Shown: positions 62,363-62,604 of the stretch, piece by piece
Numbering within the stretch: the stretch's first letter is position 1
Layout of the letters: each line of letters starts with the position of its first letter
Origin: Escherichia coli
GTDB taxonomy: Bacteria; Pseudomonadota; Gammaproteobacteria; Enterobacterales; Enterobacteriaceae
Assembly (NCBI RefSeq): GCF_045037415.1
Contig: NZ_CP173438.1
Direction: 5' to 3' (one strand)
Length of the DNA stretch: 64,000 nucleotides
Notes under the pieces: model-generated
The model's input: the letters and a program-made list of their open reading frames with translations, nothing else
Told to the model about the DNA's origin: nothing
The model's database searches: none
Translations under genes and position numbers: made by a program

Positions 62363-62419
62363 TGTGAATGTGGTCCGCATTCGTTCATAAACGCACATAA
62401 CATCATGATCTGTGTGGTT

Positions 62420-62603
62420 TTGTAGGCCGGATAAGGCGTTTACGCCGCATCCGGCGACAGGAGCCAAATGCCGGATGCAACGCTGGCGCGTTTTATCCGG
62501 CCTACAATGAGCACAACATACTGATTTATATTGTTTTGTATGCCGGGTAAGGCATTCACGCCGCATCTGGCGACAGGAACTAAATGCCGGATGCGTCGCT
62601 GGT
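62420..62603. repeat. BIME cluster: at least three to four REP elements in alternating orientation
   Basis: gtaggccggataaggcgtttacgccgcatccggcg / atgccggatgcaacgctggcgcgttttatccggcctac / gtatgccgggtaaggcattcacgccgcatctggcg / atgccggatgcgtcgctgg. Confidence 0.85.
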
Positions 62604-62604
62604 T

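Follow-up and report, generated by a model that had tools for sequence, protein, structure and literature searches.

How do the transcripts of two operons that run towards each other end when no convincing terminator lies between them? This question is raised by a locus in a 64,000-nt stretch of Escherichia coli DNA (contig NZ_CP173438.1; the window, whose positions are numbered from the first letter of the stretch). Here the convergent genes mglC and preA, the last genes of the mglBAC and preTA operons, are separated by a spacer at 62363–62604 that is filled with repetitive extragenic palindromic (REP) sequences, grouped as a bacterial interspersed mosaic element (BIME). Elements of these families have been known since 1984–1991. 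We propose that the array, an ortholog of the cluster catalogued as REP156 in E. coli K-12, is of the BIME-2 type and probably acts for both operons as a hairpin barrier and attenuator at the 3' end, working in either direction. The original prediction, made from the letters of this stretch, had described a dense REP cluster between the two genes; that observation is confirmed and its interpretation is supported, apart from a remark on integration host factor (IHF).

The mglC–preA Spacer Contains a BIME-2 Cluster

The 242 bp at 62363–62604 are exactly the gap from the mglC stop codon to the preA stop codon, as expected from the predicted position between convergent genes. The spacer holds three full REP palindromes and half of a Z2 unit in alternating orientations, and these palindromic units (PU1–PU4) take up 181 bp between the outer edges of PU1 and PU4, in good agreement with the three full and one partial REP that had been placed within about 180 bp. 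PU1 (62422–62455, + strand) is a Y-type REP made up of GTAG and GCCGGATAAGGCGTTTACGCCGCATCCGGC, with an AA/GC mismatch in its stem; all 34 of its 34 nucleotides are identical to those of the Y units of K-12 REP325. A 14-nt head-to-head linker of the S type (GACAGGAGCCAAAT, 62456–62469) leads to PU2 (62470–62505, +), an inverted Z2-type REP that consists of GCCGGATGCAACGCTGGCGCGTTTTATCCGGC and a CTAC foot. A tail-to-tail linker of 32 nt (62506–62537) separates this BIME unit from the next. PU3 (62538–62571, +) is an eroded Y-type REP (GTAT followed by GCCGGGTAAGGCATTCACGCCGCATCTGGC), and a second 14-nt head-to-head S linker (GACAGGAACTAAAT, 62572–62585) connects it to PU4 (62586–62602, +). The latter is a partial Z2 with only the head arm and the loop (GCCGGATGCGTCGCTGG), and it ends 2 nt before the preA stop codon.

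The array can be divided into two tandem units with a 116-bp period and the order linker-Y-S-Z2 (62396–62511 and 62512–62602), the second of which is truncated in its Z2. This periodicity is seen as a direct repeat (D1) of 91 nt, in which 62396–62486 matches 62512–62602 with 82% identity at a spacing of 116. The 59 nt between mglC and PU1 (62363–62421) are not REP sequence. Their last 26 nt (62396–62421) are homologous to the tail-to-tail linker and open the first tandem unit, with a linker-like match that covers 62396–62424. In other Escherichia alleles an additional Z2 unit occupies the position of this flank. The idea that the flank is a decayed fifth unit of the Z2 type was unsupported, as by eye about 7 of 23 positions match the 3' half of Z2.

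REPs are defined as imperfect palindromes of 30–40 nt with a GTAG foot and a two-base mismatch in the stem, and BIME-2 elements combine Y and Z2 units through a short S linker and occur in tandem (PMC3333891). PU1, PU2 and PU3 are palindromes of 34–36 nt, with PU3 forming its hairpin on the + strand only, and PU4 is half a unit. The foot is GTAG in PU1, CTAC in PU2 and a degenerate GTAT in PU3, and is missing from PU4. The AA-opposite-GC mismatch is found in PU1, PU2 and PU3 and appears as an internal loop when the GTAG-first strand is folded. The array lies wholly between the two stop codons, and copies of its units are dispersed through the genome. Y and Z2 units stand in inverse orientation across 14-nt head-to-head linkers, and the 116-bp unit is present twice (one to two and a half units in the Escherichia alleles). 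Judged by its sequence, the cluster belongs to the BIME-2 type, an assignment that follows from the identity of PU1 with the REP325 Y unit and from the Z2 type of PU2.

The Rfam model RF02564 (naRNA4, for nucleoid-associated RNA) is a covariance model of the Y-linker-Z2 pair with a gathering score of 59.5 bits. It aligns end to end with the complete Y-S-Z2 unit at 62425–62502 on the + (mglC-sense) strand, its own linker falling on the first S linker, and the score of 88 bits (E = 2.3e-14 for the entire window) is above the cut-off. The − strand of the same unit (52.2 bits) and the second, truncated pair (29.9 bits) score below it. The model also matches all six units of REP325, K-12 REP156 and BIME-2 units at other loci, so the match identifies a sequence class rather than a particular RNA gene. 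Across the window there are 26 occurrences of the REP head motif, compared with an expectation of 9.4, and six of the 26 lie within the spacer. A query of 442 bp was compared with 5,426 complete E. coli genomes from RefSeq and matched a median of 24 places per genome, as expected of a dispersed repeat.

The Array Is Related to REP156 and REP325 of K-12

The supplement of a recent preprint lists REP156 at K-12 positions 2236535–2236684 as convergent between preA and mglC (bioRxiv 10.64898/2026.03.23.713779). K-12 has the same flanking genes, the same 242-bp spacer and the same order (Y-S-Z2-linker-Y-S-partial Z2), and the two spacers are colinear with 228 of 242 positions identical; the units pass the REP and BIME-2 definitions. 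By this comparison the window array is the ortholog of K-12 REP156, which is already catalogued, and no new kind of element; the expectation of a known E. coli feature was thus correct. The REP156 annotation corresponds to window positions 62421–62570 and takes in the three full units only, leaving the partial Z2 outside. The two strains differ in the third palindrome, which is intact in K-12 and eroded in the window strain, where it has a GTAT foot, two weakened pairs and no preA-sense hairpin.

Divergence from K-12 is spread unevenly over the locus. Compared with K-12 (L001:550–640), the preA-proximal unit (62512–62602) has 10 differences in 91 positions; the mglC-proximal unit has 2 in 91, and the coding flanks diverge by 2–4%. 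Erosion, or conversion from other REP copies, are candidate causes.

REP325 (yjdM–yjdN), the source of naRNA1–6 and a model member of the BIME-2 class, resembles the window array in its alternating Y and Z2 units, its short head-to-head linker and its tandem arrangement. Its six units repeat every 100 bp and have a tail linker of 17 nt, whereas the two units of the window array repeat every 116 bp and have a tail linker of 32 nt. The genes around REP325 form a tandem operon, and those around the window array converge. The Z2 stems also differ. The window has GCCGGAT/ATCCGGC where REP325 has GCCTGAT/ATCAGGC, and there is a second compensatory swap. In total five positions distinguish PU2 from the Z2 of REP325, and four of them make up two compensatory swaps (G-C to U-A and G-C to A-U).

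REP Hairpins Are Present Where a U-Tract Terminator Is Not

Folding energies were computed on both strands of the spacer, together with z-scores. PU1 is predicted to form a hairpin of −19.5 kcal/mol on the + strand and −21.3 kcal/mol on the − strand (z = −3.65 and −4.98), and PU2 gives −20.5 and −19.8 kcal/mol on the two strands. Both units are thus stable on either strand, within −19.5 to −21.3 kcal/mol and z-scores of −3.7 to −5.0. Alternatively, PU1 and PU2 could pair with each other in a single long hairpin (−50 to −55 kcal/mol, z −7 to −8).

PU3 of the window strain is weaker. In addition to the change of its foot from GTAG to GTAT, two of its stem pairs are altered: they read as G.U on the + strand, whereas the − strand has C/A mismatches there. 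The fold gives −14.9 kcal/mol on the + strand; on the − strand (−10.9 kcal/mol, z = −1.7) the canonical hairpin is gone. The K-12 PU3 gives −18.5 and −19.4 kcal/mol. In preA-sense RNA, a hairpin is predicted between PU4 and the head of PU3, beginning 5 nt past the stop codon.

A U tract follows none of the REP hairpins. A scan of the spacer for U-tract terminators returned nothing convincing, with one weak match inside PU2 against 1.0 expected by chance, and a promoter scan found no promoter-like site in or adjoining the spacer.

A Terminator Occupies the Spacer in Sister Genera

Loci from outside E. coli were collected with one DNA-pattern scan for the PreA ferredoxin motif in species-representative genomes, which gave 27 enterobacterial and Aeromonas loci. 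Every sampled Escherichia locus carries a BIME with a partial Z2 at the preA stop codon, and REPs were found in 10 of the 10 alleles examined. The spacer measures 197 bp in E. albertii, 151 bp in E. whittamii, 130 bp in Escherichia sp. E1V33 and 112 bp in Escherichia sp. MOD1-EC7003; it is 152 bp in E. coli E69 and 280 bp in SCPM-O-B-8794. The variation in copy number expected between strains thus extends to spacers of 112–280 bp in other Escherichia lineages.

In Citrobacter spp. the spacer is 57–61 bp long, has no REP and contains a GC hairpin between an A tract and a T tract. This hairpin (−30 to −31 kcal/mol, z −6 to −7 on both strands) was picked up by the terminator scan, and by its fold and its flanking tracts the Citrobacter spacer is a bidirectional intrinsic terminator. 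Read from the sequence alone, the 76-bp spacer of Kluyvera ascorbata has a terminator-like GC hairpin followed by a T run. These elements share with the E. coli array their place between the same two stop codons and a GC-rich hairpin that can be read from both strands. They are single hairpins with A and T tracts, contain no REP and are not dispersed, whereas the E. coli array lacks U tracts.

The preA stop position is kept in Citrobacter, Kluyvera and Aeromonas. The last residue of PreA is the same (...T/A/S/V-L-stop) in Citrobacter, Kluyvera, Pseudocitrobacter, Salmonella arizonae and Aeromonas, and most Citrobacter loci have the same ACG TTG TAA end. Since the C terminus and the stop are unchanged across genera, the REP did not create the stop codon, and we rejected the REP as a source of either the preA stop codon or a new C terminus.

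The 280-bp array of SCPM-O-B-8794 (L020:6133–6412) has the order Z2-Y-Z2-Y-Z2. Its terminal Z2 is of full length and has a GTAG foot that overlaps the stop codon of preA, here TAG (TTG TAG GACGAG...). At this point the common alleles have TAA and are shorter by 13 nt. The overlap of foot and stop is a hint that insertion of the BIME took place precisely at the stop codon.

Some other loci in this set have a different layout. In Pseudocitrobacter, Kluyvera cryocrescens and K. georgiana (L018, L069, L064, L074) a long stretch follows preA, and it appears to hold an extra small, hydrophobic-looking open reading frame (ORF). In Pseudocitrobacter 614–706 bp lie between preA and mglC, and the genus has REP-like palindromes of its own species type beside mglC; in the two Kluyvera the mglC end was not detected. 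About 4 kb from preA, Escherichia sp. MOD1-EC7003 has an extended tandem array that repeats about every 115 bp (L071:300–1070). In it, six naRNA4 matches that barely exceed the cut-off (60–61 bits) are interleaved with five matches to Rfam ES036 (CssrF). The array looks like a large BIME of another subtype.

Three Spacer Alleles Account for Most E. coli Genomes

The proposed check of REP copy number across E. coli genomes was carried out with the 442-bp query and bore out the expected variation, with spacers of 242, 126 and 70 bp in the RefSeq complete genomes. At least 80% of the query is covered in 2,875 of the 5,426 genomes, and these have the 242-bp or the 126-bp allele; the remaining genomes, as sampled from the ranking, have a 70-bp spacer. 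The 242-bp allele accounts for about 52% of the 5,426 genomes, the 70-bp allele for about 47% and the 126-bp allele for about 57 genomes.

Deletion of precisely one 116-bp unit from the 242-bp allele gives the 126-bp allele. It is matched by 57 records with at least 99% identity, and all 45 that were listed match in a single piece with 100% identity. The serotyped strains among these listed matches are O157:H7, and the rest are mostly isolates from cattle or meat. The 242-bp allele is retained by other O157:H7 strains and by O55:H7 strains. Among the matches listed (e.g., NZ_CP016625.1, 3237821–3238026), the 126-bp allele appears to be limited to a sublineage of O157:H7, and it could serve as a lineage marker.

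In the 70-bp allele the head of a left Z2 is fused to the head of a Y unit in a near-perfect palindrome (GCCGGATGCGCCGCATCCGGC in strain E700025), followed by a short linker and the partial Z2. Its layout looks like a collapse of a 151/152-bp haplotype such as that of E. whittamii or E. coli E69. A GC hairpin of 12 bp is still present.

The best matches to a synthetic query with three full 116-bp units were all two-unit alleles, and none with three or more was seen; this is a weak test, since a three-unit allele from a divergent lineage could rank lower. No spacer longer than 242 bp was found among 40 records sampled evenly from the ranked matches of the 442-bp query. The 280-bp and 152-bp alleles of SCPM-O-B-8794 and E69, which are representative genomes of the GTDB, had no colinear match among the RefSeq complete genomes.

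The Array as a Probable Two-Way 3'-End Element

The spacer of the window strain has no U-tract terminator and sister genera have a terminator at the same place. The most economical interpretation is that the 3' ends of both operons are now set by the REP hairpins. We consider it probable that this BIME-2 cluster acts as a two-way barrier and attenuator for mglBAC and preTA. Transcripts arriving from either side would end in stable, GC-rich hairpins, which would stop 3'-to-5' exonucleases. They would also reduce, in part, transcription that runs on into the opposing gene, perhaps helped by Rho on the preA side. In this way the Escherichia hairpins may have taken over the job done in sister genera by an intrinsic terminator. 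At the level of DNA the Y/Z2 pair would in addition be a candidate gyrase site. The cluster most likely originated from a REP-associated transposase system, and its size would now change in two ways: repeats recombine with each other (242 to 126 bp), and a long hairpin collapses (151/152 to 70 bp).

Several reported properties of REPs agree with this proposal. A dual role as terminator and stabiliser has been shown for REP325, and convergent gene pairs with a REP between them have higher expression. A Rho-binding peak in vitro, in sense orientation to preA, is given for K-12 positions 2236464–2236532 in the supplement of the preprint cited above (bioRxiv 10.64898/2026.03.23.713779). It corresponds to window positions 62573–62641, lies 3 bp from REP156 and spans the partial Z2 and the second short linker.

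Other observations weigh against the proposal. The same supplement gives the preA Rho peak as weak (log10 enrichment 0.32) and NusG-dependent, its listing has no bicyclomycin-sensitive transcript that overlaps this peak, and among the rows listed REP156 occurs in the sheet of the Rho screen only. Fragments of REP325 with two to four hairpins showed no bicyclomycin sensitivity, and genome-wide, terminal REPs did not lengthen mRNA half-lives. In the window strain itself, PU3 has no hairpin on the preA-sense strand. Finally, the roughly 47% of E. coli genomes with the 70-bp remnant manage without the rest, which argues that most of the array is dispensable.

The finding by itself matters little, as the locus is already catalogued in K-12. 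What is added is comparative and modest: the replacement of a terminator, the fixation of a partial Z2 at the stop codon throughout the genus and a recent loss of one unit within O157:H7. The locus can nevertheless be regarded as a natural experiment, in which the same convergent gene pair is found with the Citrobacter terminator and with REP arrays of 70, 126 or 242 bp, including a change within O157:H7. The allele set bears directly on the recent proposal that REPs are local, two-way regulators of the 3' untranslated region.

Alternative and Additional Roles

Four of the alternatives concern decay, DNA topology, translation and the history of insertion. The first is that the array is a selfish or neutral relic, a decaying non-autonomous REPIN/BIME left by a REP-associated transposase and without function at this site. 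We regard this as doubtful, although it would account for the range of the array from 70 to 280 bp across Escherichia and its near absence from about 47% of E. coli. It also fits the state of unit 2 in the window strain, with its GTAT foot and lost stem pairs, and the excess of differences from K-12 in this unit over unit 1. In vitro, mutation of GTAG abolishes both binding and cleavage by TnpA(REP) (PMC3333891). Given this requirement and the GTAT foot of PU3, we infer that unit 2 is probably no longer a substrate of the transposase. What a relic without function does not explain is that the ancestral terminator is gone from every Escherichia allele and that each allele nonetheless has one or more strong GC hairpins between the stops, which suggests that some hairpin is still required. 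The compensatory substitutions in the Z2 stems also speak against a relic. A selfish origin and a co-opted function are in any case compatible.

A second alternative places the role of the array mainly in the DNA, as a site strongly bound and cleaved by gyrase that would relieve supercoiling between the converging operons independently of transcription. The architecture suits this role, as Y and Z2 units joined by a short linker make up a BIME-2. Gyrase cleavage sites are over-represented in BIME-2 elements, favor Y units and give a stronger signal after rifampicin (PMC6379681). However, cleavage occurs in only a subset of BIME-2 elements, just two to three intact units are present at this locus, and the supplement text searched for that study names neither mglC nor preA. 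As the principal role we hold this to be a tentative explanation only.

Third, the stop-proximal hairpin might put a brake on the translation of PreA. For REPs that lie within 15 nt of a stop codon, stalling of ribosomes has been proposed (Liang, Rudd and Deutscher 2015, as cited in PMC12306157), and the hairpin between PU4 and the head of PU3 could stall terminating ribosomes and lower PreA output. It is predicted 5 nt past the UAA in preA-sense RNA (−23.1 kcal/mol for a 70-nt stretch, z = −2.4), and the partial Z2 abuts the preA stop in every Escherichia allele. Set against this, PU4 is half a REP, the head-to-head pairing is weaker here (GCCAGAUGC vs GCAUCCGGC) and the z-score is modest. 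We consider a brake of this kind rather unlikely. A gyrase site, a brake on PreA and selfish DNA are mutually compatible, and each is possible in addition to the proposed role at the 3' ends.

A fourth and improbable scenario has the BIME entering at the base of Escherichia, at the preA stop, with the ancestral ACG TTG TAA end serving as a near-GTAG target of the transposase. The insertion would have displaced the bidirectional terminator, and the array would since have acted as a dial that varies between strains. If so, the 70-, 126- and 242-bp alleles would set the level of PreA translation through the stop-proximal hairpin. They would also set convergent read-through between the operons for galactose transport and pyrimidine catabolism.

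A role as a nucleoid-associated RNA is unlikely, and we give it very little weight. Read-through from mglBAC would have to be processed to an naRNA4-like RNA that binds HU and condenses the chromosome (Qian et al. 2015). The score of the mglC-sense strand (88 bits against the cut-off of 59.5) would agree with this, and naRNAs derive from the Y-linker-Z2 units of REP325 (PMC4550694). The Rfam model matches every BIME-2 unit tested, however, and no promoter-like site was found in or beside the spacer. Moreover, it is the 2026 preprint that makes this role unlikely, because it disputes it: deletion or over-expression of REP325/naRNA left the nucleoid volume unchanged and contacts between REPs were not seen (bioRxiv 10.64898/2026.03.23.713779).

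Least probable of all is an IHF-binding element of the BIME-1 (RIB/RIP) type, which resembles the array in having inverted REP units at the 3' ends of transcription units and differs from it in requiring Z1 with Y, a single copy and a conserved long L linker that carries an IHF site (PMC3333891). The window array is tandem, has no Z1 and no L linker, and its two head-to-head linkers measure 14 nt each. The original prediction had attributed IHF binding to such clusters in general, and since IHF belongs to BIME-1 this association does not transfer to a BIME-2 with Y and Z2 units and 14-nt S linkers. One IHF core-like match (AATCAGTATGTTG) is present in the tail-to-tail linker (62514–62526, − strand), with an A/T-rich stretch before it, and it recurs in every Escherichia allele with the long tail linker, which may reflect chance or common descent. 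With 16 occurrences of the core pattern (WATCARNNNNTTR) in the window, roughly one in every 4 kb, the match is weak evidence.

Flanking Genes and Other Features of the Window

The gene names were taken from RefSeq records that are identical over the 442 bp, in which mglC encodes the MglC permease and preA a subunit of dihydropyrimidine dehydrogenase. The allele of the window strain is 100% identical to that of SK1144 and of several further RefSeq strains. The coding sequence of mglC (61352–62362, + strand) is an ORF of 336 amino acids with its stop codon at 62360–62362. That of preA (62605–63840, − strand) is an ORF with its stop codon at 62605–62607, and corresponds to the 1236-nt PreA gene of RefSeq. 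In the RefSeq feature table of K-12, the interval from preA to mglC has no REP or RNA entry, and among the papers open to searching none pairs mglC with repetitive extragenic elements.

The mglC–preA spacer is the sole clustered (BIME) site within the window. Three isolated REP-like palindromes lie elsewhere, at 17343–17372, 44223–44257 and 46277–46310, the first of which is a Y-like unit (GCCAGATGCGGCGTGAACGCCTTATCTGGC). Matches to other Rfam models at gathering level comprise a tRNA (13979–14052, − strand) and a gammaproteobacterial leader of the L25 ribosomal protein (17768–17793, − strand), both of which are ordinary and unrelated to the array.

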